This document shows positions 12,716 through 64,000 of a stretch of 64,000 bases of DNA, piece by piece (within the stretch, counting starts at the first letter, position 1; the number at the start of each line of letters is the position of its first letter). The notes beneath the pieces are model-generated. The model searched no databases. It saw only the letters and a program-made list of their open reading frames with translations, and was not told where the DNA came from. Origin of the DNA: Chiloscyllium plagiosum (taxonomy: Eukaryota); contig NC_057719.1 of the NCBI RefSeq assembly GCF_004010195.1, forward strand, positions 16,635,532 through 16,699,531, written 5' to 3'. The position numbers and the translations under genes were made by a program.

Positions 12716-12739
12716 AATCTAAGTAAAGACATGTGAGGC

Positions 12740-13482
12740 CGGAAAAGCACAGCCAGTCAGACAGCACCCAAGGAGCAGGAGAGTCGACATTTCGAGCCCA
12801 CATATCCCCCCTCACCTCCATCCAAGGCCTCAAAGGATCCTTCCACATCCGGCAGAGATTTTCCTGCACGTCCAAACACCTCATCTACTGTGTCCATTGT
12901 TATTGATGTGGTCTCCTCTACGTTGGGGAAACAGGGCGTCAATTTGCGGGACGTTTCATTAAAACATGTCCTAGCTGCACACACCAAACAACCCCACCAC
13001 CCTGTGGCCGAACACTTTAAATCCCATCTCACTCTGCCAAGGACATGCAAGTCCTGGGCCGCCTCCATGCCAAATCCTACCTACCCAATGCCTGGAGGAA
13101 GAACACCTCATCTTCCGCCATGGGAACCTCCAACCATACAGAACCAATGTGGATTTCACCAGTTTCCTCATCTCCCCTCCCCCCACCTTATCCCAGGTCC
13201 AACCCTCCAACTCAGCACCACTCTCTTGAATTATGTTACCTGTCCATCTTCCTTCCCACCTATCTGCTCCACCCTCCACTCCAACCTATCACCATCACCC
13301 TATCTATCTACCTATTGCATTCCTAGCTGCCTTCCCCCCCGGCCCACTGCCATCCTTGATGAATATGCTGTGCTTGAAACGTCAACTCTCCTGCTCCTCG
13401 GATGCTGCCTGATCGACCGTGCTTTTCCAGCCCCACACGTTTTGACTCTGATCTTCAGCATCTGCAGTCTTCACTTTCTTCC
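12740..13482 (+). mobile_element. PLE family A with a short inverted terminal repeat at its 5' end
   Basis: Inverted terminus 12740-12798, then endonuclease-coding fragment (HHPVAEHFKSH) and forward terminus. Confidence 0.82.
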
Positions 13483-13575
13483 ATATGAAATCTAAGAAGG
13501 GAGGACTCATTACTGACAGTGGGGAGATTTCCATCAGTCACCTTTCCTGACTCCCATCTTGCTTTTCTTTTACAG

Positions 13576-18376: not shown

Positions 18377-19470
18377 GGTAAAAACAATGACTGCAGATGC
18401 TGGAAACCAGATTCTGGATTAATGGTGCTGGAAGAGCACAGCAGTTCAGGCAGCATCCGAGGAGCAGTAAAATCGACGTTTCGGGCAAAAACCCTTCATC
18501 AGGAATAAAGGCAGAGAGCCTAAAGGGTGGAGAGATAAGCTAGAGGAGGGTGGGAGTGGGGAGAAAGTAGCATAGAGTACAATAGGTGAGTGGGGGAGGG
18601 GATGAAGGTGATAGGTCAGGGAGGAGAGGGTGGAGTGGATAGGTGGAAAAGGAGATAGGCAGGTAGGACAGGTCATGGGGACAGTGCTGAGCTGGAAGTT
18701 TGGAACTAGGGTGAGGTGGGGGAAGGGAAAATGAGGAAGCTGTTGAAGTCCACATTGATGCCCTGGGGTTGAAGTGTTCCGAGACGGAAGATGAGGCGTT
18801 CTTCCTCCAGGCGTCTGTGGTGAGGGAGCGGCGGTGAAGGAGGCCCAGGACCTCCATGTCCTCGGCAGAGTGGGAGGGGAGTTAAAATGTTGGGCCACAG
18901 GGCAATGTGGTTGATTGGTGCAGGTGTCCCGGAGATTTTCCCTAAAGCGCTCTGCTTGGAGGCGTCCAGTCTCCCCAATGTAGAGGAGACCGCATCGGGA
19001 GCAACGGATACAATAAATGATATTAGTGGATGTGCCAGTAAGACTTTGATGGATGTGGAAGGCTCCTTTAGGGCCTTGGATAGAGGTGAGGGAGGAGGTG
19101 TGGGCGCAGGTTTTACAGTTCCTGTGGTGGCAGGGGAAGGTGCCAGGATGGGAGGGTGGGTTGTAGGGGGGCGTGAACCTGACCAGGTAGTCACGGAAAG
19201 AACGGTCTTTGCGGAAGGCGGAAAGAGGTGGGGAGGGAAATACATCCCTGGTGGTGGAGTCCGTTTGGAGATGGCGGAAATGTTGGCGGATGATTTGGTT
19301 TATGCAAAGGTTGGTAGGGTGGAAGGTGAGCACCAGTGGCGTTCTGTCCTTGTTACGGTTGGAGGGGTGGGGTCTGAGGGCGGAGGTGCGGGATGTGGAC
19401 GAGATGCGTTGGGCATCTTTAACCATGTGGGAAGGGAAATTGCGGTCTCTAAAGAAGTAGGCCATCTGGT
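18377..19470 (-). mobile_element. PLE family A (subfamily variant), ~1.1 kb, with linker and GIY-YIG endonuclease
   Basis: ORF 18446-19504: PLVLTFHP...GTFPCHHRNCKTCAH...NIIYCIRCSRCGLLYIGETGR...VAQHFNSP, frameshifted. Hammerhead at 18471-18506. Confidence 0.92.
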
Positions 19471-21070
19471 CCATTTTCCTAGTCAGACATATTCTTTCAG
19501 CCATCTGTGCTTCATCCCAATGTTAAAAACCTCAATCTACTTTCTGCAGAGACACCTTGCTAGTTTGGGAGGACATCAGTCTGTTACTGGAGAGAGAGAA
19601 AAGGAGAGGGAGTGCTCCAGATCCATGAGCTTTGACAGGAACAGCCTACTGAAGAAATAATGGCAGTGTTTCCAGAGGTTTTGCCTGGCCTGCTGGGAGT
19701 TTCAAGCATTTTCTGTTTATTTTCCAAATTTCAGGCTTCTTTGGCAAAATTATAACTGGTGCTTTACCATATGGCACCTCTAAATGAGATTAGCAGCTAA
19801 ATGTTAAATTAGAAAGATAGCTCGCTTAGTTCATGCTTGACAAAAATTGATTGCGACTGCGTGAAATCTGTTTGATGCAGAACTCTTGCATATATATGAG
19901 TCTTGCTTTAAGATTGAAACCTTGAATCTAATCCCAGTGGTGCAAGTTGCTAACTCTTTCTGACTATGAAGTGATATCCTAATAAATTAAAATAACCATG
20001 AAAGGTAGTCAGCATGGGAAGGTGAGTAAGAATGGAGTGCTGCTCCTTATAACCTGTCGAAATAGGAGAGCTTTTGCACATTTTGAGGAGAGGTAAACGT
20101 TTATATTTCCTATCTGTGCCTCTGAATGAGCTCCATGTGTTTGCAAATTGTGTTCTTATGGGGTCTTTTGCAGCCTGCACTTATACTGGCTGCATAGTTG
20201 TGCTTTACTGTGGAAACGCAGGGTGACTGATAGTTGTGGTTCTGTTTGCCGAGCTGGGAATTTGTGTTGCAGATGTTTTGTCCCCTGCCTAGGTGACATC
20301 ATCAGTGCTTGGGAGCCTCCTGTGAAGCGCTTCTGTGATGTTTCCTCCGGTATTTATAGTGATTTGTATCTGCCGCTTCCGGTTGTCAGTTCCAGCTGTC
20401 TGCTGCAGTGGTCGGTATATTGGGTCCAGGTCGATGTGCTTATTGATTGAATCTGTGGATGAGTGCCATGCCTCTAGGAATTCCCTGGCTGTTCTCAGTT
20501 TGGCTTGTCCTATAATAGTAGTGTTGTCCCAGTCGAACTCATGTTGCTTGTCATCTGAGTGTGTGGCTACTAAGGATAGCTGGTCATGTCGTTTCGTGGC
20601 TAGTTGGTGTTCATAGATGTGGACCGTTAGCAGTCTTCCTGTTTGTCCTATGTAGTATTTTGTGCAGTCCTTGCATGGGATTTTGTACACTACATTGGTT
20701 TTGCTCATGCTGGGTATCGGGTCCTTCGTCCTGGTGAATTGTTGTCTGAGAGTGGCTGTTGGTTTGTGTGCTGTTATGAGTCCTAGTGGTCACAGTAGTC
20801 TGGCTGTCAGTTCAGAAATGTTTTTGATGTATGGTAGTGTGGCTAGTCCTTTTGGTTGTGGCATGTCCTCATTCCGTTGTTTATCCCTTAAGCATCTGTT
20901 GATGAAATTGCGCGGGTATCCATTTTTGGCGAATACATTGTATAGGTGTTCTTCTTCCTCTTTTTGCAATTCTGGTGTGCTGCAGTGGCCCTTTTGAATA
21001 GTGTCTTGATGCAACTTCTTTTGTGTGTGTTGGAGTGATTGCTTTCGTAGTTTAGGACTGTGTGTGTGGC

Positions 21071-21522
21071 TGTGGTGTAAAATTCCAAGCAGTGGAATGT
21101 GGTGAAACGGTTAAAAATTATGTCCCAATACATGTGTGAATCTAACCGGAATGGAGGTGTTGCTTAGTCCCGTGTGAATCTTCTTATCTGTATGTAACCA
21201 GAATGGAATGTGTTTTTTAGCCTTGCTCTGCTGTTCACATGAATGTTTATATCTGGAAGGGAGTATATCAGCTAGAAAAGTCTCCAGTTCGGTGAGTCTG
21301 CTCCGGGGTTACGTTTAACCGCCGAGCGTGGGTTGTTGGCAACCGCTCTACAAGAACTGACGGCTCCCAGTTTTTGTAACATGTAGAGTGAGTATAAACC
21401 AGACCCGTTGTGCGACACTGCGGGGAATAAAATGCCCATATTCTAGCAGTCTCGCCTCTTGGTCGTTTGTTCTGTGTCAGACTACTCTCCTACGAACCTG
21501 ACCTTGAGAATTTTTTAAAACA
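21071..21522 (+). mobile_element. Solo LTR inserted in the PLE
   Basis: TG...CA ends, 5-bp TSD gtggc (21066-21070, 21523-21527) whose removal restores the PLE sequence, TATAAA at 21393 and AATAAA at 21426. Confidence 0.85.
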
Positions 21523-22255
21523 GTGGCTTTCCTGTGTACCTTTGTGGTGAATTCTCCGTTCGGTGTTCTCTGTACCATCACGTCTAGGAATGGGAGTTGG
21601 TTGTCCTTTTCTTCCTCTCTAGTGAATCAGATTCCTGTGAGTGTGGCATTGATGATCCAGTGTGTATTCTCTATTTCTGTGTTTTTAATGATTACAAAGG
21701 TATCATCTACATGTCTGGATTAGAAACCTCTCCCACAGACAGCTCACAGACACGGAAAGAACAATACTGGCCAAGGGACTCAACTACAACCACAGGGACA
21801 CCAAGACAGCAGACTTCCTAGCAGCACTAGAATGCACACTCAGGAACAATGGACTGACAGAAGAGACACAACAAACAGTGAGACAAAGTATCGTACACCT
21901 GATAACAAGGAAAAGACAAACACACAACCTCAACACTAAGGAGAGGGAAGCATTAAAAGCACTAAGAAACGATAAGAACATAATCATACTACCAGCAGAC
22001 AAAGGCAGAATGACGGTTATCCTGGACAAAGCAGAGTACATCCAAAAAGCACAACAACTACTTGCAGATACCAACACCTACCAAAAGAGGGAGTTTGACC
22101 CCACCCCACAGCTCACCAATAGGATAAACAACACACTGAGGAACCTACAAAAAAACGGACAGATAACCAGGACGGACCTACAAAGAATGAAACCTGAAAG
22201 CAACAACACCCCCAGATTCTATGGACAACCTAAAGTGCACAATCCAGACATCCCA

Positions 22256-23031
22256 NNNNNNNNNNNNNNNNNNNNNNNNNNNNNNNNNNNNNNNNNNNNN
22301 NNNNNNNNNNNNNNNNNNNNNNNNNNNNNNNNNNNNNNNNNNNNNNNNNNNNNNNNNNNNNNNNNNNNNNNNNNNNNNNNNNNNNNNNNNNNNNNNNNNN
22401 NNNNNNNNNNNNNNNNNNNNNNNNNNNNNNNNNNNNNNNNNNNNNNNNNNNNNNNNNNNNNNNNNNNNNNNNNNNNNNNNNNNNNNNNNNNNNNNNNNNN
22501 NNNNNNNNNNNNNNNNNNNNNNNNNNNNNNNNNNNNNNNNNNNNNNNNNNNNNNNNNNNNNNNNNNNNNNNNNNNNNNNNNNNNNNNNNNNNNNNNNNNN
22601 NNNNNNNNNNNNNNNNNNNNNNNNNNNNNNNNNNNNNNNNNNNNNNNNNNNNNNNNNNNNNNNNNNNNNNNNNNNNNNNNNNNNNNNNNNNNNNNNNNNN
22701 NNNNNNNNNNNNNNNNNNNNNNNNNNNNNNNNNNNNNNNNNNNNNNNNNNNNNNNNNNNNNNNNNNNNNNNNNNNNNNNNNNNNNNNNNNNNNNNNNNNN
22801 NNNNNNNNNNNNNNNNNNNNNNNNNNNNNNNNNNNNNNNNNNNNNNNNNNNNNNNNNNNNNNNNNNNNNNNNNNNNNNNNNNNNNNNNNNNNNNNNNNNN
22901 NNNNNNNNNNNNNNNNNNNNNNNNNNNNNNNNNNNNNNNNNNNNNNNNNNNNNNNNNNNNNNNNNNNNNNNNNNNNNNNNNNNNNNNNNNNNNNNNNNNN
23001 NNNNNNNNNNNNNNNNNNNNNNNNNNNNNNN
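22256..23031. other. Assembly gap
   Basis: N run. Confidence 1.
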
Positions 23032-23352
23032 TGTGCTTATTGATTGTATCTGTGGATGAGTGCCATGCCTCTAGGAATTCCCTGGCTGTTTTCTGTTTGG
23101 CTTGTCCTATAATAGTAGTGTTGTCCCAGTCGAACTCATGTTGCTTGTGTGGCTACTAAGTACTTATTACAGCCAGGGAATTCCTAGAGGCATGGCACTC
23201 ATCCACAGATTCAATCAATAAGCACATCGACCTGGACCCAATATACCGGCCACTGCAGCGGACAGCTGGAACTGACAACCGGAAGCGGCAGATACAAATC
23301 ACTATAAATACCGGAGGAAACATCACAGAAGCGCTTCACAGGAGGCTCCCAA

Positions 23353-23392
23353 GCACTGAGGATGTCACCTAGATAGGGGATGAAACGTCTGC
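23353..23392 (+). ncRNA. Minimal hammerhead ribozyme motif (PLE family B)
   Basis: GCA-CTGAGGA-t-GTCACCT agat AGGGGAT-GAAAC-GTC-TGC, with stem I GCA/TGC; decayed inverted copy at 20269-20308. Confidence 0.72.
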
Positions 23393-23617
23393 AACACAAA
23401 TTCCCAGCTCGGCGAACAGAACCACAACAACGAGCACCCGAGCTACAAATCTTCTCCCAAACTTTGACTGATAGTGCCTGAAGAAACTGGGGCAAAGGCA
23501 CACACAATAGGGAGACCATTTCTTGTGTTTCTGTTTCAGTGGGAAGCAATGCCCTCTGATATGTACTTGCCATGTATGCTGGGAAATAATTTTCCAACAT
23601 GCAATACCTCTAGGAAT

Positions 23618-25166
23618 GCATAAATCCCCAGAACCTGATCATGTGTACCCTAGAACTCTGTGGGAAGCTAGAGAAGTGATTGCTGGGCCTCTTGCTGAGA
23701 TATTTGCATCATCGATAGTCACAGGTGAGGTGCCGGAAGACTGGAGATTGCCTAACATGGTGCCACTGTTTAAGAAGGGTAGTAAGGACAAGCCAAGGAA
23801 CTACAGACAAGTGAGCCTGACGTTGGTGGTGGGGGCAAGTTGTTGGAGGGAATCCTGAGGGACAGGATGTACATGTATTTGGAAAGGCAAGAACTGATTA
23901 GGGATAGTCAACATGGCTATCATGTTTCACAAACTTGATTGAGTTTTTTGAGGAAGTAACAAAGAGGATTGATGAGGGCAGAGCAATAGAAGTGATCTAC
24001 ATGGACTTCAGTAAGGCGTTCGACAAGGTTCCCCACAGGAGACTGGTCAGCAAGGTTAGATCTCAGGGAGAACTAGCAATTTGAATACAGAACTGGCTCA
24101 AAGTTAGAAGACAGAGGGTGGTGATGGAGGGTTGTTTTTTAGACTGGAGGCCTGTGACCAGTAGAGTGCCACAAGGATCAGTGCTGGATCCTCTACTTTT
24201 TGCCATTTATATAAATGATTTGGATGTGAGCATAAGAGGTATAGTTGGTAAGTTTGCAGATGACACCAAAATTGGAGGTGTAGTGGACAGCGAAGAGGGT
24301 TACCTCAGATTACAACAGGATCTTGATCAGATGGGCCAATAGGCTGAGACGTGGCAAATGAAGTTTAATTTGGATAAATGTGAGGTGCTGCATTTTGGGA
24401 AAGCAAATTATAGCAGGACGTAGACACTTAATGGTAAGGTCCTAAGGAGTGTTGCTGAACAAAGAGACCTTGGAGTGCAGGTTCATAGCGCCTTGAAAGT
24501 GGAATCGCAGGTAGAAAGGATAGTGAAGAAGGCATTTGGAATGCTTTCTTTTATTGGTCAGAATATTGAGTAGAGGGGTTGGGAGGTCATGTTGCGGCTG
24601 TACAGGACATTGGTTAGGCCACTGTTAGAATATTGTGTGCAATTCTGGTCTCCTTCCTATTGGAAATATGCTGTGAAACTTGAAAGGGTTCAGCAAAGAT
24701 TTACAAGAATATTGCCAGGATATGAGCTATAAGGAGAGGCTGAACAGGCTGGGGCTGTTTTCCCTGGAGCGTCAGAGGCTGAGGGATGATCTTATAGAGG
24801 TTTATAAAATTATGTGGGGCATGGATAGGATAAGTAGACAAAGTCTTTTCCCTGGGGTCGAGGAGTCAAGAACTAGAGGGCATAGATTTAGGGTGAGAGG
24901 GAAAAGATATAAAAGAAACCTAAGGGGCAACGTTTTCACGCAGAGGGTGATACATGTATGGAATGAGCTGCCAGAGGAAGTGGTGGAGGCTGGTACAGTT
25001 GCAACATTTAAAAGGCATTTAGATGGGTATATGAATAGGAAGGGTTTGGAGGGATATGAGCCGGGTGCTGACAGTTGGGATTAGATTGGGTTGGGATATC
25101 TGGTCGGCATGGACGGGTTGGACCGAAGGGTCTGGTTCCGTGCTGTCCATCTCTATGACTCTATGA
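23618..25166 (+). mobile_element. CR1 (HER1-like) LINE, 5'-truncated, containing the RT
   Basis: KSPEPD...VPEDWR..N.VPLFKKG...NYR, DFSKAFDKV, VPQGSVL, FADDTKIGG; stops and frameshifts; (ctatga)n tail. Confidence 0.93.
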
Positions 25167-26669
25167 CAAGGCTTTGCCATGGTATCAGTAAAAAAATTAC
25201 CTTTGTTGGATTGACATCATGGGTCCCACTCATGAAGCATCTGTTTTACTGTTTTATTCTTGGTGGAAAGCTTCCTCCCCCACCTCATATCCACCTCATG
25301 AAGCACATAATTAAAGAAACCACCCCTTGTATCAAAGTAATGACGAATATTGTTCTAATATTATCAGCACAGCACAGTGGATACAGGAGGTCTGAAATAA
25401 AAATAGAACTGCTGGAGAAACTCAGCAGGTCTGGCTGAGTCTGGGGAGAGAGAGAGAGAGTAAGTTAATGTTTCGGGTTCAACATTGTGACATTTTTCAA
25501 GTTTGATCCCAGATCGATAGGTTCTGTATTTTTAGTTTGGTAAGGTATTTCAGATTTACTGCTGCCCTAAGCTCTGAATCCATTTGATCAGGTTATTATA
25601 TCAGCATTTGACTGAAGTGTACTGCTGCCAGCAAGATAAACAAACATAGCTATTTGGACAGACTTAGTTCTGGATTTGACCAGAAGCAAAAAAAAACACA
25701 CACAGATTCAGTGGAGCTCCTGTATTATGTGGTAGTATCAGATGAGGAACAGAAGCTGCATTAATGGCTGACTGATTTTTTTAAGAGCCTCCAGACTGGG
25801 TGTCAGTGGCAGTGTTGTTAGTATTTTACCAGCTGTGGGGAGCAAAGTTAGCCTTAAGCTGAAATGACCTTGTTGTGATGGAAAACTCCCTTTAGAACTA
25901 ATCAATCTCCCACTGTTAATATCTGATCGGCTGGTATTATGAAAGGGCAAAGTATTATCTGTTGTAAACAGTGGGAAAGACCTGCTTTGGCTCAGATAGG
26001 AATTGGTCCAATTTAGCTTATTCACATCACATATTTAGAGGTGACTCGTTGCTAAACGTCTTGGTTTATTTCAGTGATGTGCTGTTTTGTATTTTAGTCG
26101 ACATGAGAAAAATGATTTCTCTTAAATTAAATGATCCAATTTCCTTAAGGGTCACAAGCTATACTTCCAAGTGAAGCAGCAATTTGCAAGTACTTCTTTC
26201 AAATTATTCTGCTGTATTTGCTACTCACAGTATAGTTTCCCGTATAATTAGGAAACCAAATGTAGATTGGGCCATTGTATTTGTGGAATATCCCCATAAG
26301 TAATGTCAGTCTGTTGTAGCTATTTGTGTTTATGTATGTCTTATGAGATATTAGAACAGTCTGGTTTCAGTTCAATGTTGACACTCCATTTGCTGCACAT
26401 TGTTTTAGTCTGTTCTTTTATGATATCACACCATTCTGTCCACAACCATGAACCTTGAACTTAACAGTGCCCTGTCATTTAACATTTCATTTTCCACCTT
26501 CCTCTCCCTCTCCCTCTTCCTCCTTGATCTAGCTGCACTATTCCAGTGAACAAGACTGTAGACTTGAGGAACATCACCTCATCGTACCTTTAGGCACTTT
26601 ACACTATCTGGACTCAATACTGAATTCAGAAATGTCAGACCATAACTCTGCATTTTATTTCCTTTTAGT

Positions 26670-27720: not shown

Positions 27721-28089
27721 TCCCGATGCTATCGGTTTTGTAGAACACAAAAATGGTACAACAACTCTTTCCTATTCAAAGCTTATCCAATTCCCTTTGA
27801 AAAGTCATGATTGAACCTGCTTTTGTTGCCCATTTTTCGTGCTTCCCAGTTTGTCATCATTCACTGTATAAATGTTTTAACCTTCATTTGAGGTGATGAA
27901 TTCAAACTTGAAGGCCATCCAGCATTTAGGTGGCTAGGCTTTAGGAACAAATGGAACTGACCACTTAGATTTAGGGACATAGAGATGTACAGCACAGAAA
28001 CAGACTCTTCAGTCCAACTCGTCCATGCCGACCAGATATCCTAAATTAATCTAGTCCCATTTGCCAGCATTTGGCCCATATCCCTCTAA

Positions 28090-29425
28090 GCTGAAAATGT
28101 GTTGCTGGAACAGCGCAGCAGGTCAGGCAGCATCCAGGGAACAAGAGAATCGACGTTTCGGGCATAAGCCCTTCTTCAGGAATGAGGAAAGTGTGTCCAG
28201 CAGGCTAAGATAAAAGGTAGGGAGGAGGGACTTGGGGGAGGGGCGTTGGAAATGCGATAGGTGGAAAGAGGTCAAGGTGAGGGTGATAGATCAGACTGGG
28301 GTGGGGGCGGAGAGGTCAGGAAGAAGATTGCAGGTTAGGAAGGCAGTGCTGAGTTCGATGGATTTGACTGAGACAAGGTGGGGGGAGGGGAAATGAGGAA
28401 ATTNNNNNNNNNNNNNNNNNNNNNNNNNNNNNNNNNNNNNNNNNNNNNNNNNNNNNNNNNNNNNNNNNNNNNNNNNNNNNNNNNNNNNNNNNNNNNNNNN
28501 NNNNNNNNNNNNNNNNNNNNNNNNNNNNNNNNNNNNNNNNNNNNNNNNNNNNNNNNNNNNNNNNNNNNNNNNNNNNNNNNNNNNNNNNNNNNNNNNNNNN
28601 NNNNNNNNNNNNNNNNNNNNNNNNNNNNNNNNNNNNNNNNNNNNNNNNNNNNNNNNNNNNNNNNNNNNNNNNNNNNNNNNNNNNNNNNNNNNNNNNNNNN
28701 NNNNNNNNNNNNNNNNNNNNNNNNNNNNNNNNNNNNNNNNNNNNNNNNNNNNNNNNNNNNNNNNNNNNNNNNNNNNNNNNNNNNNNNNNNNNNNNNNNNN
28801 NNNNNNNNNNNNNNNNNNNNNNNNNNNNNNNNNNNNNNNNNNNNNNNNNNNNNNNNNNNNNNNNNNNNNNNNNNNNNNNNNNNNNNNNNNNNNNNNNNNN
28901 NNNNNNNNNNNNNNNNNNNNNNNNNNNNNNNNNNNNNNNNNNNNNNNNNNNNNNNNNNNNNNNNNNNNNNNNNNNNNNNNNNNNNNNNNNNNNNNNNNNN
29001 NNNNNNNNNNNNNNNNNNNNNNNNNNNNNNNNNNNNNNNNNNNNNNNNNNNNNNNNNNNNNNNNNNNNNNNNNNNNNNNNNNNNNNNNNNNNNNNNNNNN
29101 NNNNNNNNNNNNNNNNNNNNNNNNNNNNNNNNNNNNNNNNNNNNNNNNNNNNNNNNNNNNNNNNNNNNNNNNNNNNNNNNNNNNNNNNNNNNNNNNNNNN
29201 NNNNNNNNNNNNNNNNNNNNNNNNNNNNNNNNNNNNNNNNNNNNNNAAGTCCCTCCTCCCTACCTTTTATCTTAGCCTGCTGGACATACTTTTCTCATTC
29301 CTGAAGAAGGGCTTATGCCCGAAACGTCGATTCTCTTGTTCCCTGGATGCTGCCTGACCTGCTGCGCTGTTCCAGCAACACATTTTCAGCTCTGATCTCC
29401 ATCATCTGCAGACATCACTTTCTCC
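28090..29425. mobile_element. Palindromic PLE family A insertion spanning a gap, ~15-bp TSD
   Basis: TSD cccatatccctctaa on both sides; inverted termini with intact hammerheads at 28148-28183 (-) and 29297-29332 (+). Confidence 0.88.
28404..29246. other. Assembly gap
   Basis: N run. Confidence 1.
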
Positions 29426-31845
29426 CCATATCCCTCTAAACCCTTCCTATTCATATACCCATCCAGATACTTTTTAAATGTTGCAAGTGCCTCCACCACT
29501 TCTTGTGGCAGCTCATTCCATACACACACCACCCTCTGCATGAAAACGTTGCCCGTTAGGCCCCTTTTAAATCTTTCCCCTTTCATCTTAAACCTAAGCC
29601 CTCTAGTTTTGGACTCCCCCACCTCAGGAAAAAGACATTGTCTATTTACCCTATCCATGCCCGTCATAATTTTATTAACCTCTATAAGGTCTTCCCTTAG
29701 CATCTGATGCTGAAGGGAAAATAGCCACAGTCTATTCAGCTTCTCCCTACAGCTCAAACCCTCCAACCATGGCAACATCCTTGTAAATCTTTTTTGACCC
29801 TTTAAGATTTACAACATCTTTCCTGTAGGAGGGAGATCAGAATTGCGTGCAGTCTTCCAAAAGTGGCCTAACCAATGCCCTGTACAGCCACAACATGACC
29901 TCCCAACTCCTATACTCAATGCACTGACCAATAAAGGAAAACATACCAGATGCCTTCTTCACTATCCTATCTATCTGTGACTCCACTTCCAAGAAATATT
30001 TAATAAGTTTGCTTCCACCTTTGATAATAGTCACCCTGCTGTGTCCACTGCAACAAAACAGACTTGGGAGTAAGTTTGCTCGTGCTTTCCTCAGGCAAGA
30101 AGATGTACTTGAGAGAGGCACATAGAGTTGACCGAGCTGCTTGAAATTTTGTGTGGAGCTTTGATAGGGAGAAATTGTTTCCGTGGGTAAGAAAGTGGGT
30201 AAGTCAAAGTCCCAGATTTAAGGTAGTTGACAAAAAACGTATCCAAGGAGGAAATGAGAGAACTTTACTCTGTGATCTGGAATACATTGCCTGAAAGAAC
30301 ACTGATTCAGATGTAACTTTCAAAAGGGAATTGGATATAACCTTCAAAAGTGAAATCTGCAGAGCTGTGGGCAAAGAACAGGAAGGGAGTCTAATTAGAT
30401 TGCTGTTGCAAAGAGCTACAGGCACATCATGCTAATAACTTCTCTCTGTGCAAATGATTCTATGACCAGAAAGCCGATCAATGGTTTATGGAAAGGGCTG
30501 GTTTGATCTTTTTCTTAATTAGTCCTGAATGCATCTCATTTATTTCATGCCATTGTGTCTTTAGACCAAGCCAGTGGATATCTTGGACCTGTCAGCAGTT
30601 TAGAAAATTGGAGCTTAAGTCACATATCTTGCACTTGACACAGTCTGGTGTGAGGGTTGGCCATGGGGCACATTGTTGGCAACAGACATTACTAGCTTGA
30701 ATCACTGCCAAATTAAACCATGATGCTCCGCGAAGATTAATGCAGGGGTATCGAAGTCATAAGGGGTTTGAATGGGACTCTTGAGGCTCAATCATAAGTT
30801 TTCTTGTGTCACTAGATTTCTGTATTTTCCCAGTTATTTCTGTGTTGTGCATATACAACAGAATAGAAGCCAAATTTCCTTAGAGGATGGGAAGAGTAAT
30901 TTGCTGATGGGGCATCAGTGTTGGCATGGGGTTTGTGGAAATATTATTCCACAGAATTACACAGCATGAAAACAGGCCATTCAGCCATACTTGTCCACAA
31001 TGTTCTTAATGCTCGACATGCGCCTCTTCCCTTCCGTCTCAATCTAATCCTGTCAGCATATCCTTCCTTTTCTTTCTCCCTACTGCGTTTGTCTAGTTTC
31101 CATTCGGATTTATCTATACCATTGCTTTAGTTACTCATGTTGGTATTTTATTCCACTTGCTGTGTAAATAACTTTCTCATTTAATATCCAAATGGATTAA
31201 TTAGTGACTGTCCTGTATTCATGGTCTTTCCCTTCACTCAGCTGCAAAGTAGAACACATATTTATCCTGTTATACCTCTTCATCATTTTAAAGGCATTTA
31301 TTCAGCCACACCTCCATCTTTTACAGGAAAGAACCCTAGACTGTTAAATATATTCTCTGATAAGTATATTCACTCTGTTCTGGGATCATACTTGCAAATT
31401 TTTCTTGCACACTCTCTGTACTACCTTTTTCAGTAGTACAGAAAGCAGAATTATTATACAGTGCTGTATAACCAATGATGATATTTGCTTCAGATCCCTG
31501 ACACACCAATGATGTATCTGTTGGAATAGTGTGCTTCAGCTTGATCTTTGATCATCTTCTACTGTGCAATGTCTCATTTTTACCACCATGTGTCCTCCCT
31601 GAATGATATTTTCAACTTAATGCAAAATTGCACTACCATTTTTCTCAAGTCCTGGATTAAACTTTTGAGTATTTATCACAAGAACCAAAGTGAGTTACAG
31701 CTACGTTTAATGTGTAAGAGTTCCAACTTGGGATGGTGTGTAGTTTGAAGGAGAACATCTTGATGCTGTAATGTGTCTTGACTCCCATGTTCTTTGAGGT
31801 GTTAGAGGTTTCAATTGTGAGATATCTTGGCTATATTCTTTTTCA

Positions 31846-32341
31846 GAATAGAATAGAATAAAATAGAATCCCTACAGTGTGTAAAAAGGCCATTTGGCCA
31901 AACAAGTCCACACTGATCCTCTGAAGATTAACCCACCCAGACTCATTCCCCTACACAATTACAGAGGAACCTTGATTGTGTGAACGACACAAGCGCGGAG
32001 TATTTTGTTTGGATAATCGAATGTAGGATAACAGAGTTTAGCCAAGCACTGGGACCTTGCGCTGTTGCAGGATAATCCAAAATTCGGATAATCAGAGTTC
32101 CTCTGTACTCTACATTTTACCCTAATGAATACACCTAATCTACACATCACTGAACACTAGGGACAATTTAGCATGGCCAGTTCACCTAACCTGTACATCT
32201 TTGGAGTGTGGGAGGAAACCAGAGCATCTGGAGGAAACCCATGCAGACGCAGGGAGGATGTGCAAACTCCACACAGACGGTTGCCAGAGGCTGGGTCCCT
32301 GCTGCTGTGAGGCAGCAGTGCTAACCACTGAGCCACAATGC
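31846..32341 (-). mobile_element. V-SINE (HE1-like) carrying a MITE
   Basis: V-domain and head at 32160-32341; tail with (agaat)n at 31846-31950. Confidence 0.85.
31962..32105. mobile_element. Tc1/mariner superfamily (pogo/Tigger-type) MITE
   Basis: Terminal inverted repeats CAGAGGAACCTTGATT...AATCAGAGTTCCTCTG, TA on both flanks, internal GGATAA repeats. Confidence 0.8.
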
Positions 32342-32693
32342 CATCCTCACCACTGTGCCGCCCTTGTGCCACAACCCGTTGTGGGTTTGAAAGATGTCGT
32401 TGCAGGAGTCTTGGACTGTGTGGCTTTTGTGCTGGGTGTCCATTGCTACGTGCTCTGCTGGCAGAGTAACTGAATGCTTCAAGGTGGTGAACAGTCTGCA
32501 GATCACATTGGCTATTTTGTTCTGAATGGTGTTGCGTTGCTTGTGGCATGGGTACATGCTGCAGACAATTTGCATTCAGGCCAAAGTATTACAGCCAAAG
32601 GTTCAGAGAATAGTACACACTTTGCTAAAAGCAGCAGAGAATAACATGAGTTGGTAATCCAGCTGATCTACTTGAATGAAAGCAGTTTATTAT

Positions 32694-32980
32694 GGGGCAG
32701 CACGGTGGCTCAGTGGTTAGCACTGCTGCCTCACAGCACCAGGGTCCCAGGTTCAATTCCAGCCTTGGGTGACTGTCTGTGTGGAGTTTGCACATTCTCC
32801 CTGTGCCTTTGTGGGTTTACTCCGGTTGCTCCGGTTGCCTTCCACAGTCCAAAGATGTGTGGGTTAAATTGCCCATAGTGTTAGGTGCATAAGTCAGAGG
32901 GAAATGGTTCTGGGTGGGTTACACTTCGGAGGGTCAGTGTGGACTGGTTGGGCCGAAGGGCCTGTTTCCACACTGTAGGG
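32694..32980 (+). mobile_element. V-SINE (HE1-like)
   Basis: Head, V-domain and tail; identical to the copy at 33633. Confidence 0.9.
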
Positions 32981-35341: not shown

Positions 35342-35549
35342 TGGATTTTCCAAGGTGTTGGACTGAGGTGGACAAAGTAAGATGTCACACAACAACAGGT
35401 CGTGGTCCAACAGGTTTATTTGAAATCACAAGCTTGTGGAGTGCTGCTCCTTCATCAGGTGAAATGACTTCACTTGACGAAGGAACAGTATCCAAAAACT
35501 TGTGACTTCAAATAAATCTGTTGGATTATAACCCAGTGTCATGTGACTT
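35342..35549. mobile_element. Older palindromic PLE family D mini-element
   Basis: Diverged match to the 2791-3265 units, with inverted arms around a 9-nt loop. Confidence 0.72.
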
Positions 35550-49948: not shown

Positions 49949-50580
49949 GGCAAATGTGAGGACTGCAGATGCTGGAAACCAGAGTTTAGATCAGAGTGGT
50001 GCTGGAAAAGCACAGCATCCAAGGAGCAGGAAAATTGACATTTCGGACAAAAGCCCTTCATCAGGAATAGAGGCAGGAAGCCTCCAGGGTGGAGAGATAA
50101 ATGGGCGGTTGGGGTGGGGGGGTGGAAGTGGGGTGGTGGTGCTGGGGAGAAGGTAGCTAATAGTACAATGGGTGAATGGGGGTGGGGATAGAGGTGATAG
50201 GTTAGAGAGGAGAGTGGGGGAAGGTAGCAAGGAGTACCTCATTGAACTGGTGGACTTCACCAGTTTCCTCATTTCCCCTCCCCCCACCTTACCTCAGTTC
50301 CAGCCTTCCAGCTCAGCATTGTCTTCATGACCTGTCCTACTTGCCAATCTCCCTTCCCATCTATCCACTGCACCCTCCCCTCTGACCTCTCACCTCCATC
50401 CCCACCCCCATTCACCTATTGTACTCTTTGCTACCTTCTCCCCAGCCCCACCTCCCCCCATTTATCTCTCCACCCTGGAGGCTCCCTGCCTCTATTCCTG
50501 ATGAAGGGCTTTTGAGGATTTTCCTGCTCCTCGGATGCTGTCTGACCTGCTGTGCTTTTCCAGCACCACTCTGACCTAAA
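49949..50580. mobile_element. Palindromic PLE family A insertion
   Basis: Inverted arms 49989-50240 and ~50400-50575; imperfect TSD caaaggtag..tgta. Confidence 0.8.
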
Positions 50581-52213: not shown

Positions 52214-52428
52214 AGCTGAAAATGTGTTGCTGGAAAAGCGCAGCAGGTCAGGCAGCATCCAAGGAACAGGAGAATCGACGTTTCGGGCATAAGCCCTTCT
52301 TCAGGACGTAACTGCTTATGCCCGAAATGTCGATTCTCCTGTTCCTTGGATGCTGCCTGACCTGCTGCGCTTTTCCAGCAACACATTTTCAGCTCTGAAC
52401 TCCAGCGTCTGCAGCCCTCACTTTCTCC
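52214..52428. mobile_element. Palindromic PLE family A mini-element
   Basis: TSD tgcttaagtaag(agct) at 52202 and 52429; inverted arms. Confidence 0.88.
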
Positions 52429-53982
52429 TGCTTAAGTAAGAGCTACATCATGTCGAATGATGAGTCACCATCACTCCTGAAGCTTTGCACTTGCAAGTTT
52501 CTCTCTTTTGGGTTTTCTGTGCATCTTTGATGCAGGATCACGTTATTTAAATGTGTCGGGAGAATCCACAACTGGAGAAGTGGAGATCTTTCTTTTGATG
52601 AAACATCACTGGACTCAGAGCGTTGACTCCGTTTTACTCTCCACAGGTACTGCCAGACCTGCTGAGTGTCTCCAGCACCTTCTGTCCTTCTTTGAGCTCT
52701 TACTCCATTAGTTGCACTTGATGGTGTAGGTATTGAGAAAAGAAGGACAGTTACAGTTACGTCAGTATGTGTGCGCAGTAAAGAACATGCAGAGAATGGT
52801 TTTCAAGGCTGGGTGGAGGGGCAGTGACATTGCTCTGCTGAAATAAGATGTGGGAAGAGCAGTACAACTCAGAGCTAAGAATGGCTGTGCTCAATGATTT
52901 GATGGCTTTGATCAAATAATTGTGCAGCACAGCTGGAAACCCTAGGTGACAACTGCAGTTTTATGAGTGAGGCATGTTATTGAAAATTAGTCACTTGTGC
53001 TTTATTACCCACCTCAGTCTTTTGGGTGGGCAGCTCTGCCAAACTAGAGCAAGTTGCTACACCAGACTTTCATAACACCTCTCTTTATTCAACTTGGCTG
53101 TTTACTGAAAAGTTGATACATTGTGCTTTATCAGAAACTGTGCACAATTATTTGAATTCTTGCAGGCAGTCAACTGATCGCTCCGGTCTAAGGCCAGGTC
53201 CATGTGGTGAATGGATCCTCAATTACAGTAACTAGCCTCTTCCATTCATGGAATCATAGAATCGTATAGTACAGAAGTGGCCCTTTGGCCCATCATGTCT
53301 GTACCATCAAAGCTACACTAAGTCGGCACTAGTTCCACTTTTCAGCACTATGCCCATAGCCTTGAATGTTTTATTTACTCATCCAAGTACTTTTTAATTC
53401 ATTTAATATTCTTTGTGCTTTTAATATTAGCCGTTGATAGAGTAAATAACTAAATGAAGAGTGAATGCACAGGCTGCAATTTCCAAGGAGTATCAATTTG
53501 TAACAGGCATTTTACAGAAAATTAAATGTTATAAAAGCAGCACTGATCACGTTTCCTGTATTCGTCCTTCCAGCAAGGCCACTGTTGCCTTGTCAGTGTT
53601 ATCTGACTGTCTCAGAATAAGCCCGGATTGCTGAACCATGGTGGCAGTCAACATCAAATGGTCTGATGTTTCATTTGATGCAGTGTGTCAGGGCAGCAGT
53701 TGGTGGCCTGGAACTCTGAGCTCAAAACATATAAAATGGCAATCCAGTACTTGTACACTGCTACTCATGTAACACACAAGAGTGCAGTCAGGTGTTGGAC
53801 TAATAGTACAAATTACAACCGCAATCAGGAAACCAGAATCTAAAGGGGGGGGGTGCAGAACGTTACAAATCTAAAGGAATTTACAGTGTGTTCTGCCAAG
53901 GGGAGTACCCTGGAACCATTACTGACTGTGCATTCCTGGCAGGCTGCACTGTATCTTTCTGTTTTGTTGTTGCTAGATGTTG

Positions 53983-54208
53983 AGCTGAAAAATGTGTTGC
54001 TGGAAAAGCGGAGCAGGTCAGGCAGCATCCAAGGAGCAGGAGAATCAACGTTTCGAGCGTAAGCCCTTCTTCAGGAATGCCTGAAGAAGGGCTTATGCCT
54101 GAAACGTCGATTCTCCTGCTCCTTGGATGCTGCCTGACCTGCTGCGCTTTTCCAGCAACACATTTTTTCAGCTCTGATCTCCAGCATCTGCAGTCCTCAC
54201 TTTCTCCC
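53983..54208. mobile_element. Palindromic PLE family A mini-element
   Basis: 15-bp TSD tgttgctagatgttg (53968-53982, 54209-54223); ~93-bp inverted arms; hammerhead on each strand. Confidence 0.9.
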
Positions 54209-55277
54209 TGTTGCTAGATGTTGCATGTTCTCTCCTAGTACAAGATTGTACGTGTTATTAAACATCACCGCTCTGCAATGTCCTTTCCCTGCGTCTTCTG
54301 ACCTGTTTGTGCAAACACAGTGTGATCCTGAGTGCAAAGCAGCCACTTCCTCCTATTATCTCCCATCTTTGCTGTCCCCTCCTCCCCTCATACATATGAA
54401 CATAACCATTTGTCTGAGAGAGGGCCTAGCTGGACATCATGCTCCCGTGAAATTGACTGCAAAGCATCAATTTGACTCTTCCCCCGATACTTATTCATTT
54501 TTAAAGAGTTTCATTCCATGCAAATTGGGAGGGTGCAGTCACTGCTCACTACTCCCCCCTGTTGGTCAATTTGAAATGAGACAGTTGTCAAGAAAAGGAG
54601 TTGAGTAGGGATCAGAGTTAAAATGAGGAAATTCTTCCAGAGTAGGAAAGAAAACAAGAATAGGCTTTTACCGCTTTGAACCTGTTTCTACTATTGAACA
54701 AAATCATGTCCGATCTGTCCCTTAACTCTGTTTAGACTTTGTTCCAGTTCCACTCCACCACCAATAGCTTGATAATGTAATTGGCCCTTTGGTAAGTTGC
54801 TCCAGTTTGTTATGGTTCCAGATGGGGATCCCCTTCCTTGAGTTCCCAGGCAAGAAGGGGTGAACAGGCTGCCTTTCCACCTGCCCCTTCAGTTGGTTGC
54901 AACAAGGCCAATTTGAACAAGATCCTTTCCTTGTGGATACTTTACTCCCAGGCCCAAATGAATGTGGCAGTGTTTCCTGAGACCCACAAAAGCAAGCAGC
55001 TATGCACACTAGCTAATCAAGACATGTGCGTGTTTCCAGACAGACATATTCATGTACACCATACATATGAAATGCACAGAGAAGGCCACATGTTTTGAAA
55101 TGGGATTCAACAGTGAGGAGTGAAGGATGAAATTGGTTGGGTAAAATCTGGGGAGGATAGAATCAGGGGTATTAATAGTCGAGCAATAACAGTACTAGGT
55201 CACCACTTCTCCCAAGACCATAAGATGTCAGAATAGAATAGGCCTTTCAGCCCATCAAGTCTGCTCCATCTGCTCCA

Positions 55278-56614: not shown

Positions 56615-57210
56615 CAGACACATTATTAGCCGAGTGAACCTTCAATACCAGTGTATCTCACTTTAGAGAAAGGGACCTAAATTGTTCACAGTATTCCAGG
56701 TTTGATTAGTGCCTTTTACAGTTGAGCAAAACCTCCTTGGTTTTACAAAACAACAAAAGCACTGTGGATGCTATAAATCAGAAACAAAAACAGAAATTGC
56801 TGGAAAACCTCAGTAGATCTGGTATCATCTGTGAAGAAAAATCAAATTTAACGTTTCAGATCGAGTGACCCTTCCTTCGAATTCAGTTCTGAGGAACAGT
56901 TCTGAGGAACCCAAAACATTAAATCTGATTTCTCTTCATAGATGCTGCCAGACCTGCTGAGCTTTGCCAGCAATTTCTGTTTTTGTTTTCTCCCTTTTTT
57001 TTGTACTCCATTCTCTTTGAAATAAATGTCAACAATCAGTTTACCTTCTCTATTACCTGCTGAGCTTGGATGTTAGCTTTTTGTGATCCAGGCACAAATC
57101 ACCTCCAAATCTTTCTACACTACAGCTGTTTGCAATCTTTTCCCATTTAAATAATATTTAACTTTTCTGTTCTTCCTGCCAAAGCACATAGTCTCATATT
57201 TTGCCATATG
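56615..57210 (-). mobile_element. Old CR1 fragment carrying a palindromic PLE family C insertion (~56745-56990)
   Basis: Arms gaaacaaaaacagaaattgctgg... / ...ccagcaatttctgtttttgtttt; CR1-like flanks. Confidence 0.65.
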
Positions 57211-57919: not shown

Positions 57920-59410
57920 CAAGGACAGTTTAGGGATAGTCAACATGGCTTTGTGCGTGCAAAATCATATTTCACTAAATTGCTCTGAAGAGGTGACAAG
58001 AAACATGTTATCTTACTGAGTCTGATGTGGGATGATTTGAAGTCATTGGGGATTTAGATCTATTGGAATAATTGTGTTTATACAGATCATTTTGCATAAG
58101 ACCAGAAAGCATGTAGGAGCAGATTGATGGAGGCAGAGCAGTAGACATGGTCTATATGGGCTTCAGCAAAGTATTCAACAAGGTTCCACATGGTAGACTG
58201 GTTAGTAAGGTTAGATCAATTGGTAAAAAATTGGATTGAAGGTAGGAGACAGAGAGTAGTGGTAGAGCAAAAACAGAAATTGCTATTAAAGCAGAGCAAA
58301 TCTGGCAGCATCTGTGGAGAGAAATTAGAGTTAGCGTTTCAATCCAGTGACTTCCTCAGAATGTGGTGGTAGAGGATTGCTTTTGGGACTGGAGGCCTGT
58401 GACTAGCTGGGTGCTACAAGGATCAGTGCTAGCTCCACTGCTTTTTGTCATTTATATAAATTATTTGGATGTGAATATAGGAGGTATGGCTAATAGGTTT
58501 GCAGATGACACCAAAATTTGTGGTGCAATGAACAGTGAAGAAGGTTACCTCAGAGTACAACAGGACCTTGATCAGATAGGCCAGTGGGCTAAGGAATGGC
58601 AGATGGAATTTAATTTAAGTAATAGTGAGGTGTTATATTTTGGTAAGGCAAACCAGGGCAGGACTTATACACTTAATGGTAGGACCCTCGGGAGTGCTGC
58701 TGAACAAAGAGATCTAGGGGTTGCAGGTGCATAGTTCCTTTAAAGTAGAATTGCAGGTAGACAGGGTAATGAAGAAGGCATTTGGCATACTACTCTTCAT
58801 TGGCCAGAGCATTGAGGTCAGAACATTGAGTGTAGGAACTGGGACATCTTGTTGCAGCTGTACAGGACACTTTTAGAATACTGCATACAATTCTGATCGC
58901 CCTTCTATCAAAAGGATTTTGTTAAACTTGAGAAGGTGCAGAAATGATTTACAAGGATGTTGCTAGGTCTGGAGGGTTTGAGTTATAGGGAGAGGCTGAA
59001 TAGACTGGGCTTTTTTTCCCTAGAAAGTCAGAGGCTGAGGAGTGACCTGATAGAGGTTTATACAACGGTGAGGGGCAGAGTTAAAATGAATAGCCAAGGT
59101 CTTTTCCTTAAGGTCAAGGTGTCCAAAACTACAGACCATAGGTTTGCAGTGAGAGGGGAAAGATTGAAAAAAGACCCTGAGGGATCCCTTTTTCATGCAG
59201 AGGGTGGTGTGTGTATGGAGCAAGCTGCCAGAGGAAGTGGTGGAAGTGGGTTTATTACAACATTTAAAAGACATCTGGATTGTATATGAATAGGAAGGGT
59301 TTGGAGGGATATGGTCCAAATGTTGGAAAATAGGACTGGATCAGTTTTGGATGACTGGTCAGCATGGATGGTTTGGACTATAGGGTCTGTTTCTGTGCTA
59401 TGATTCTATG
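57920..59410 (+). mobile_element. CR1 LINE with two internal insertions
   Basis: VLQGSVLAPLLFVIYIN...FADDTKI; insertions at 58001-58122 and 58268-58361 (PLE family C terminus). Confidence 0.9.
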
Positions 59411-60239: not shown

Positions 60240-61577
60240 TATACAGTGAGTACAGTAGGGGGCTGAATACGCAATCAACACTGGAGCCCCCCCAGGGTGC
60301 GTACTCAGCCCCCTACTGTACTCACTGTATACCTATAACTGCGTCGCCAAATACCAGACTAATGCCATTTACAAGTTTGCTGATGACACCACCAAGTAGA
60401 AGACCTGAAAAAATGGTGCACTGAGAACAACCTAGCTTTCAATGTCAGCAAAACCAAGGAACTCATTATTGTCTTTCAGCGGGATGTTATTCATGCCCCC
60501 CTACACATTAACAACACAGAGGTGGAATGAGTGGACAGTGTCAAGCTCCTGGGAGTGGTCATTCACAACAAGCTTTCTTGGACTCTTCATGTGGATGCAC
60601 TGGTTACAAAGGCCCAACAAGGTCTCTTCTTCCTCAGGCAGCTGAGGAAATTTGGCATGACAGCAAATACCCTTGCCAACTTTTATAAGTGTGCCATCGA
60701 GAGCATTCTGTCTGGATGTATCACTACCTGGGTATGGCAACTGTACTATTCATGATCGGAGCCAGTTACAGAGAGTGGTGAACTCAGCCTGGCCAATCAC
60801 AAAGGCCAACCTCCCATCTACAGAATCCATCTATCCATCTACCAGGGCCGCTGTCAAGGAAAGGCTGCCAGCATTCTCAAAGATCCATCCCACCCTGACA
60901 ATGTTTTTCTACAGGGAGGAGTAAGTGAGGACTGCAGATGCTGGAGATCAGAGGTGAAAAATGTGTTGCTGAAAAAGCACAGCAGGTCAGGCAGCATCCA
61001 AGGAGCAGGAGAATCGATGTTTCGGGCATAAGCCCTTCTTCAGGAATGAGGAGGGTGTGCCAAGCAGGCTAAGATAAAAGGTAGGGAGGAGAGACTTGGG
61101 GGAGGGGCGTTGGGAATGCGATAGGTAGAAGGAGGTTAAGGTGAGGGTGGGGGTGGAGAGGTCCACAAGAAGATTGCAGGTTCTTCCCGACCTCTCCGCC
61201 CCATGCCCTCTCTGGCCCATCACCCTCACCTTAACCTCCTTCCACCTATCGCATTCCCAACGCCCCTCCCCCAAGTCCCTCCTCCCTACCTTTTATCAAT
61301 GTTTTTCTATAACCTCTGCCATCGGGGAGAAGGTACAGAAGCCTGAACACACACACCAACCGCTTTCGTAACAGTTTCTACCCTACTGTTGTTAGAATAT
61401 TGAATCGACTCCCAAATTCTGAACATTCGCCTGTATCTGTGTTTTGTTTTTGCTGCTGTTTACCTCTTATTTACTATCTATGCTACTTAACTCTGTGATC
61501 TGCCTGTATTGCTCACAAGACAAGGCTTTTCACTGTGCCTCGGTACACGTGACCATAAATGCAATTCAATTCAATAA
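60240..61577 (+). mobile_element. Rex1/Babar-clade LINE, 5'-truncated
   Basis: TGAPQG, YKFADDTT, NVSKTKEL, SVKLLGV.I.NKLSW..HV..LV.KAQQ.LFFLRQLRKFG...NFYKCAIESILSGCITTW; (attca)n tail. Confidence 0.82.
60918..61296. mobile_element. PLE family A insertion with inversion, inside the Rex1/Babar LINE
   Basis: 13-bp TSD caatgtttttcta (60899-60911, 61297-61309). Confidence 0.87.
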
Positions 61578-61719: not shown

Positions 61720-61801
61720 TCTGGATTAGTGGTGCTGGAAGAGCACAGCAGTTCAGGCAGCATCTAAGGAGCTTCATCTGCAGTCATTGTTTTTACCTCG
61801 T
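61720..61801. mobile_element. 82-bp PLE micro-insertion
   Basis: 15-bp TSD tgacaagagccttgt (61705-61719, 61802-61816); two opposite-orientation pieces of the terminus seen at 18377-18465. Confidence 0.82.
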
Positions 61802-62521: not shown

Positions 62522-64000
62522 CAGGTGACTGCAGTGGCACAGGTTCTGGGAGTAGACCAGACCTGTGCCATATACAACAACACTGACAGTACCTCACACC
62601 TGATGACCAGGTTTCTTCCCGTGATGGAGAGTGACCTTTGGTTCCCATCTGCCCAGTTTCTGCCTTGCTTTCCTGATCTGCTCCTCCCAAGACTTGGCGC
62701 ATGACCCAGCCCCACCGAACCAAATACCCAGCACCTTCAGGTGGTCAGTCCAGACAATGAAGGGGATCGAGGATTGGTCGGCCCAGTTCCCTTGCTCTTG
62801 CCTTGATTGACCTAGCTCCTGAGGCCCGTTCAAACTGGTCAAATATGCACATGAGTCTGCGCACGGACAGCGGATCCGAGCAGAAAACGGTGACGTCATC
62901 CATGTACAGGGAGGCCTTAACCAGTAGGCCCCCGCTGCCAGGAATAGTAACCCCTCTCAGGCTCGCATCCTTCCTGATGGACTCAGCAAATGGCTCCATG
63001 CAGCACACAAACAAGGCAGGAGAGAGAGGGCAGCCCTGCCTGACTGCAGATCTGACTGGGAAGCTATCTGATTCCCACCCATTGATTGAGATGCACTGAC
63101 AATATTGGTTTAGAGCAGTCTGATCCAGTTGCAGATTCCCTCCCAAAAACCCATTTCGGAGAGAACATCCCTCATATACGTATGCTATATCCTGTCAAAA
63201 GCTTTCTCCTGGTCCAAGCTGATGAGGCAGGTGTCCAACTCCCTGTCCTGCACATAGGCAGTCGTATCCCTGAGGAGTGCGAGACTCTCAGCGTTTTTCC
63301 TGCCTGGTACAGCACAGGTTTGGTCAGGGTGAATCACCAACCACAGAGTAGACCTGACCCAGTTGGTGGTGACCTTTGATAAGATTTTGTAATCCGCGTT
63401 TAATAGTGAGATTGGTCTCCAATTTCTAATTTCCTCCCTCTCCCCCTTCCGCTTGTAGATGAGGGTGATGATGCCTTTCCTCATGGATTCGCTCATGGTA
63501 CCTGCCCGAAGCATATTACATACACCTCCAGTCATGGTACCTGCCCGAAGCATATTACATACACCTCCAGCAGGTCCTGGCCAATCAAGCCCCAGACAGT
63601 AGCATAGAGCTCGATCAGTAAGCCGTCGCTTCCAGGAGTTTTATTCTTTTCAAAGGACTCGCGGGCCTTGGTCAGCTCATCCAGAGATAACAGTTGGTCC
63701 AGCCTCTCCCGCGTTCTGTCGTCTAAGACCTCCATGATAGAGGACAGGAACGACTGGGAGGCCGCGCTGTCAGTTAGCTTTGAGTCATACAGACTGGCGT
63801 AGAAGGATTTACTGATCCTCATGATGTCAGCCTGAGATGACGTTACCGAGCCATCATCTTCCTTCAGGCTGCTAAGCACGGAGCTCTCTTTGTGCACCTT
63901 CTGGAAGAAGAAACGTGAGCACGTCTCATCCTGCTCCACGGAGCAGACCTTGGACCGGAAGATTATCTTGGAGGCCTCCGAGACAAAGAGCGAGGCTGGC
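62522..64000 (-). mobile_element. Tx1 (L1-group) LINE ORF2, disrupted, running off the window
   Basis: NKTPGSDGL, NWRPISLLNADYKILSK, IHPDQTCAVPGR, LDQEKAFDRI, VRQGCPLSPALF, YMDDVTVF, LKVLGIWFG; several frameshifts. Confidence 0.9.

Follow-up and report, generated by a model that had tools for sequence, protein, structure and literature searches.

A palindromic 226-bp insert with two opposed hammerhead motifs in Chiloscyllium plagiosum as the probable footprint of a Neptune-type PLE insertion

Results

Architecture of the insert

The window, that is, the whole stretch of 64,000 nucleotides analysed here (Chiloscyllium plagiosum, contig NC_057719.1), contains an insert of 226 bp at 53983-54208, which is built from two head-to-head arms of 93 and 94 bp. 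A 226-bp insert made of inverted ~93-bp arms had been described in the original prediction; the arms are indeed present and are separated by a 4-nt loop. The perfect 15-bp TSD was confirmed as well, the left copy (53968-53982) being an exact match to the right copy (54209-54223).

The left arm (53983-54075, minus strand) is a short, tailless and inverted pLTR arm, the outer end of which is a proximal site common to five other short arms and to the tailless solo copy at 4703-4796. It carries a minimal type-I hammerhead motif (54047-54074, minus strand) with the cleavage triplet GUU, in which one stem II pair is now G-U. The loop (54076-54079, minus strand) belongs to the short arm only and consists of the element's own bases -4 to -1, with an initiator-like motif; we take these bases to match the initiator consensus. 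Offsets are counted from 54080 as 0, which places the predicted hammerhead cut before +29. The long pLTR arm (54080-54173, plus strand) starts at offset 0 and carries the second minimal type-I motif (54081-54108, plus strand; predicted cut 54108/54109), where a change from C to T at position 54100 has turned the conserved G-C pair closing stem II into G-U. Thus the two predicted back-to-back hammerheads are found with one core per strand, at 54081 (plus) and 54074 (minus). Over 93 aligned bases the arms show 5 substitutions, in addition to a 1-nt difference in a T-run. The long arm is followed by a PLE tail (54174-54208, plus strand), which is one-sided as predicted but 35 nt long instead of ~33 nt; its end at the 54208 side is the largest loose-end class in read mapping. 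Short open frames are present near the locus.

The insertion is real and old

Contigs crossing each of the two boundaries between unique flank and element, at the short arm (53700-54005/7) and at the tail (54184/6-54500), were found in all three DNA runs, which represent three organisms; one of the runs (X1) may be the window's own sample. None of the contigs listed bridges the whole insert, and its centre is not independently bridged. Compared with the window, the flanks show 17 (organism B) and 21 (organism C) differing letters in a stretch of ~600, and each copy of the TSD carries a change in organism C. An empty site was not seen, the insertion being present in organisms A, B and C. Since the boundaries are present in three related organisms, the insertion at 53968-54223 is real, shared and old, and an assembly artefact at the insert ends is ruled out.

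The parent family is a putative Neptune-type PLE

Within the window, the arm yielded 25 BLAST matches. Longer copies of this family (family A) run upstream into the end of an ORF, and the longest piece (18449-19522, minus strand) comprises a linker, a CxxC motif and a GIY-YIG region followed by the same pLTR. This ORF piece has its best matches in shark proteins, with up to 88% identity. Pfam gave only a weak GIY-YIG match for the window ORF itself (E 0.12); GIY-YIG was detected in three of the four relatives scanned, and RVT_1 likewise in three of four. A second protein search found no full-length shark ORF. A CX2-5CxxC linker upstream of GIY-YIG was seen by eye in the window ORF and in P0001. 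In the available text of PMC8557442, a CxxC linker before the nuclease marks the Neptune/Nematis type, so that the linker points to this type here. By linker motif and domain order, the insert is assigned to the pLTR end of a Neptune-type PLE. The original prediction that it is PLE-derived, made through RNA and recurrent proved right.

The typical PLE layout, as given in the available parts of PMC3846280, PMC8557442 and PMC2377424, consists of an inverted 5'-truncated arm, an optional tail of 30-40 bp and a TSD; 53968-54223 has the inverted 5'-truncated pLTR, a tail at one end and the TSD. Outside the window, neither metagenome pattern 1 nor the viral contigs gave a copy. Metagenome pattern 2 gave 81 loci, only two of which had alignments of at least 35 nt (38 nt, 82%), and these were treated as chance.

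Pieces of a second PLE family lie at 20292-23450. Their nuclease-like and RT-like frames have no Pfam match, a hammerhead is located at 23356, and a head-to-head junction at 23032-23226 adjoins an N gap; presumably this family is Poseidon-like. The open frames at 592-1026, 24677-25081, 29389-29808 and 62748-63999 look, as we assume, like LINE reverse-transcriptase fragments of CR1-like and L1/Tx1-like kind. The window also holds a tRNA match at 11282-11354 (minus strand; 53 bits, anticodon UUU) and, at 32187-32866, a SINE-like repeat in two inverted copies that lie 368 bp apart.

Head-to-head inserts recur with different junctions

Seven family-A inserts with an inverted 5' part were found (82, 211, 226, 385, 632, 760 and 1336 bp), and each of the seven is flanked by a TSD and tailed at one side only. 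At 52214-52428 the same design as in our insert had been predicted. A palindrome with a TSD is present there, but it starts at 52218 (52218-52428), has a different centre with a 7-nt filler and a 16-bp TSD, and contains only one hammerhead core, because the tailed arm starts at ~+11, without CUGA. This TSD ends in 6 nt that agree with the element at the short-arm end. In the 82-bp insert at 61720-61801, the arms stand head to head within an exact 15-bp TSD and do not overlap; the inverted arm covers ~+39 to +92 and the tail piece ~+105 to +128. The insert at 12724-13483 (13-bp TSD) comprises an inverted short arm, the ORF 3' end and the pLTR with tail, and the one at 49949-50580 is joined head to head upstream of the motif, with a filler containing pieces of 7 and 8 nt that match nearby sequence. 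At 60912-61296 (minus strand, 13-bp TSD) a tailed copy has an inverted 5' duplication ending ~29 nt upstream of the motif. The largest head-to-head insert, 28089-29424, has arms identical over 95 bases, a 14-bp TSD and a central N gap; this assembly gap, at the centre of a palindromic PLE insert, lies at 28404-29246.

The six readable family-A junctions all differ, the seventh insert being the one with the N gap. By hand reading, the second arms end within ~2 nt of one site in six of the seven inserts; the exception is 60912-61296, which ends upstream. The tailless solo copy at 4703-4796 ends at the same proximal site and has its own 13-bp TSD. Across the inserts, TSDs measure 12-16 bp and are unrelated in sequence. 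The two arms are reciprocal nearest neighbours in three of the five overlapping inserts; they are not mutual nearest neighbours at 53983-54208 (ranks 2 and 6 of 19) and at 12724 (ranks 2 and 2). The same palindromic layout occurs in longer, ORF-bearing inserts, and the family-A inserts form a continuum, not one fixed unit.

The predicted recurrence in families D and C was also borne out, by palindromes centred just 5' of the motif at 2842-3004, 3106-3265, 35406-35525 and 56782-56988. A single tail is likewise found in the family-D (3/3) and family-C (1/1) palindromes, with differing centres; clear TSDs were not found at 35354 and 56745. Altogether, six motif-centred palindromes are present in 61,419 called bases, which corresponds to ~98 per Mb. 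The comparison of central junctions that had been proposed genome-wide was carried out within the window, where no two of the six share a centre; the minimal palindromes comparable in this way are two of family A and three of family D only.

Within 2797-3302, two family-D palindromes with different centres and ~13% arm divergence both have one and the same 39-bp sequence behind them (3007-3045 and 3264-3302), which neither a simple tandem duplication nor an ordinary TSD explains. The family-C solo copies at 279-385, 25395-25480, 52584-52693 and 58268-58362 appear to start at or near the hammerhead 5' edge. No ORF-bearing family-C copy was seen in the window, and family C is possibly a stub-only family. 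A 92-bp imperfect palindrome at 60240-60331 lacks a hammerhead motif and is the only copy of its kind in the window.

The hammerheads are predicted to be inactive

Minimal type-I hammerheads have been described for PLEs (PMC4209133, available part), and we searched the window with our own minimal-hammerhead descriptor designed after that work. It gave 14 matches in the window and none in any of 100 block shuffles. At 53968-54223, Rfam reported no hammerhead match at E values up to 1, and weak matches to miRNA-family hairpins below threshold.

Folding of either strand of the insert resulted in one long hairpin (z -24.8 and -22.2; none of 200 shuffles as good). The pairing probability of stem II was ~1e-12 within the palindrome versus 0.5-0.7 in the arm alone, and both motifs carry decay. 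Since they lie on opposite strands and are buried in the hairpin, both hammerheads are predicted to be inactive. With one motif per strand, no hammerhead dimer is possible in cis. The stub has no upstream promoter-like motif, and re-mobilisation therefore looks unlikely from its sequence. The prediction that the palindrome gives a long dsRNA holds in the folding model, with ~93 bp if the insert is read through.

No RNA reads were found on the flanks of 53968-54223 in ~2% of one poly-A run, and no RNA data set was among those listed as containing the locus. As to A-to-I editing, the ratio of places with A>G or T>C to places with C>T or G>A was 31:29 for the RNA run, against 13:24 for X1 (Fisher P 0.14), with reads that stem from the family as a whole and from another sample. 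The locus is ordinary decayed repeat DNA.

The centre lies upstream of the predicted cut

The inversion point had been predicted to fall at or near the ribozyme. It does lie at the 5' edge of the motif, but 29-33 nt upstream of the predicted cut, at the initiator-like motif, and not at the cut itself. In a hand tally, six of the 23 family-A arms and solo copies start at -6 to 0, three of them solo, and none starts at +29. All ten family-A copies checked that have upstream sequence, diverged subfamilies among them, contain a TTTATC/CTTATC motif at -34 to -36, and a family-D solo copy has TATAAA at -37. PLE transcripts begin within the pLTR according to the available text of PMC6765202. Judging from these motifs, the centre is probably where the template RNA has its 5' end, and run-off at that end would be the simplest reading of its position. 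A place where many RNA molecules begin was not found in ~2% of the poly-A library run. Of the eight left-arm joints listed, four begin between +29 and +35 and thereby close to the predicted cut; hammerhead cleavage may sometimes set the cDNA end, or these joints could be alignment effects. The link to the ribozyme looks positional, through the template RNA's 5' end, rather than catalytic.

Discussion

Relation to known systems

Insertions of EN+ PLEs, as far as described in the available parts of PMC3846280, PMC8557442 and PMC2377424, have the same head-to-head 5'-truncated arm, tail at one end, TSD and pLTR hammerhead, and the same kind of parent ORF, with RT, CxxC linker and GIY-YIG. In contrast to those insertions, the arms of the stubs are cut down to the 95-130-nt pLTR end without an ORF body, and their centres cluster at the hammerhead 5' edge in three families. 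The Anolis Poseidon element PAc likewise has two fixed 3' ends ~35 nt apart and an AT-rich flank consensus behind the tail end, and ribozyme cleavage is apparently not needed (PMC11167929, available part); unlike PAc, the parent here is Neptune-type. Inverted inserts are not treated in the available part of that paper, and the head-to-head joining of start sites is our own reading. Non-LTR retrozymes, in the accessible portion of bioRxiv 10.64898/2026.07.22.740005, are also non-coding and PLE-derived with a type-I hammerhead, and occur in a chondrichthyan. They are, however, arranged as tandems, head to tail, and carry their two hammerheads on one strand, whereas the insert has no tandem and one core on each of opposite strands, and it was rejected as a retrozyme.

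In the literature searched, which left most subscription papers outside its scope, twin priming was not found for Penelope; minimal PLE palindromes in sharks were not found there either, with Repbase also outside the scope, nor were PLE palindromes misclassified as MITEs. The layout is known; neither its minimal form nor a reading by twin priming turned up in the literature searched. In twin priming of LINE-1, the RNA is primed by both nicked strands, so that a 5' part comes to lie inverted within the TSD, and the geometry is that seen at 61720-61801. Unlike in LINE-1, the start site of the second primer would be fixed here, and the arms overlap in most cases, so that a palindrome and not a simple inversion results. 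MITEs are short non-coding palindromes with a TSD, but they have symmetric TIRs and a TSD fixed for the superfamily; the stubs have variable TSDs, asymmetric ends and a retroelement origin. The one-sided tail and the unrelated TSDs of 12-16 bp led us to reject assignment to the MITE class.

Origin of the insert

We consider the insert at 53983-54208 to be, with fair probability, a dead one-off product of an autonomous Neptune-type PLE, made anew by twin priming. Its sequence represents a pLTR end, and longer copies of the same family carry a GIY-YIG ORF. In vitro, the Anolis PLE protein, which is a predicted dimer from another clade (Poseidon, not Neptune), nicks both strands of the target and extends them, beginning reverse transcription at two internal RNA sites located on either side of the tail, without a need for ribozyme cleavage (PMC11167929, available part). 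If the shark protein works in the same way, one nick would prime at the distal site and give the tailed arm, and the other nick, 15 nt away, would prime at the proximal site and give the tailless arm, whether on a single RNA or on RNAs of common origin. Both cDNAs would then run off at or near the RNA 5' end, where transcription would begin, 3-4 nt upstream of the hammerhead core. The cDNA ends would be joined head to head, and the filled-in stagger would become the TSD. The hammerheads would be passengers, one per strand and buried in the hairpin. Under an independent choice of start sites, the one-tail rule has P ~2e-4 to 1e-5 (10 inserts, tail frequency 0.7-0.8); since such a strict rule is unlikely in that case, we infer that each nick uses one site. 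In read mapping, other copies show many different joints (15 listed and 555 more; listed depths 8-690 versus 1e6-1e7 on the arms), read depth not being equal to copy number. The joints 54206->54174 and 54207->54174, each seen in 3-9 contigs in all three DNA runs, reveal a tandem duplication of the tail in other copies, which suggests repeated initiation at the distal site.

Recurrent formation, as originally predicted, is upheld by these data; for its proposed route, fold-back priming, twin priming fits better, in view of 61720-61801 and of the fixed short-arm end shared with the tailless solo copy. In fold-back, the cDNA, after run-off at the RNA 5' end, turns back and serves as its own template; untemplated C additions would perhaps pair across the 4-nt loop, and an endonuclease would trim the second arm 35 nt short. 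For the inverted pLTR and the one-sided tail, self-priming at PLE junction palindromes (PMC3846280) and endonuclease-mediated resolution (PMC8557442) have been proposed in the available parts of these papers. The centre of 53983-54208 suits such a route, being a clean 4-nt loop between perfect arms without filler, and as a rule each arm most resembles its partner in the insert. At 61720-61801, however, the inverted arm contains bases not copied into the tailed arm, and fold-back therefore cannot give these non-overlapping arms, barring a later deletion. Furthermore, the tailless solo copy ends at the same site as the short arms, and in vitro such a site is a start of reverse transcription (PMC11167929, available part). 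Fillers and unequal arm lengths at other junctions, without priming microhomology, also speak against fold-back. Fillers that match nearby sequence are a signature of end joining; pieces of the filler at 49949-50580 do match, unlike the 7-nt filler at 52218. This one insert, 61720-61801, carries the case against fold-back and could itself be a later internal deletion. On balance, fold-back appears unlikely.

The alternative original reading, a non-autonomous hairpin family, was not supported in the window: besides the six differing centres, the layout also occurs in ORF-bearing inserts and other genomic copies have many different joints of low depth. Here a palindromic master would be transcribed and re-inserted by the PLE protein. 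The density of motif-centred palindromes given above would favour such a family, as would two signals at 54079, namely G>T at 2.0-2.5% of arm depth and a 1-nt deletion in 23-33 contigs per DNA run at <1% of arm depth; both are far deeper than the joints listed and could be a shared near-perfect centre. These signals may be alignment-edge effects, and the letter of the locus itself reaches at most 0.5-1.3% of arm depth in DNA and 24 of ~1094 RNA reads, a depth that includes ordinary copies placed on the left arm. In addition to the missing promoter-like motif, the stub would, by analogy, lack an RNA stretch on which the Anolis protein depends and which lies 3' of the start sites (start 111-118, minimum 172; PMC11167929, available part). 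We regard it as doubtful that the insert arose from such a family, and equally so that some of the palindromes are a self-propagating, protein-free hairpin retroelement moved by the PLE protein in trans. If this were true, one near-perfect centre would have been amplified to ~2% of a very large PLE family, and many long dsRNA hairpins would have been seeded, possibly feeding silencing of the parent family. A secondary origin, by two adjoining insertions or by later central deletion of a longer inverted insert, as happens in unstable palindromes, is very improbable. A long palindromic insert does lie nearby (28089-29424), PLEs tend to insert next to earlier copies (PMC6765202, available part), and the arms differ by 5 of 93 bases. 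Against this, a single TSD pair flanks the whole insert, a deletion would not stop the arms at -4 and 0, where solo stubs begin, and the arm divergence fits the age indicated by the flanks (17 letters changed in organism B and 21 in organism C, over ~600). Being short, non-coding, palindromic and flanked by a TSD, the insert might also be taken for a MITE moved by a DNA transposase or for an assembly artefact. We give hardly any credence to this, since TSD length and sequence vary, the ends lack symmetry, the arms come from the pLTR of an RT/GIY-YIG family, and both boundaries are present in three organisms.

Implications

Such stubs would easily be misfiled as MITEs or miRNA hairpins. In this shark they are short enough to be read whole and number ~98 per Mb in the window, and their tail pairing, arm overlap and 5' ends, examined genome-wide, would test twin priming against fold-back directly. 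The stub insertions are useful mainly as a test set for the mechanism of PLE integration, the locus being the probable footprint of a PLE insertion rather than a new kind of mobile element.
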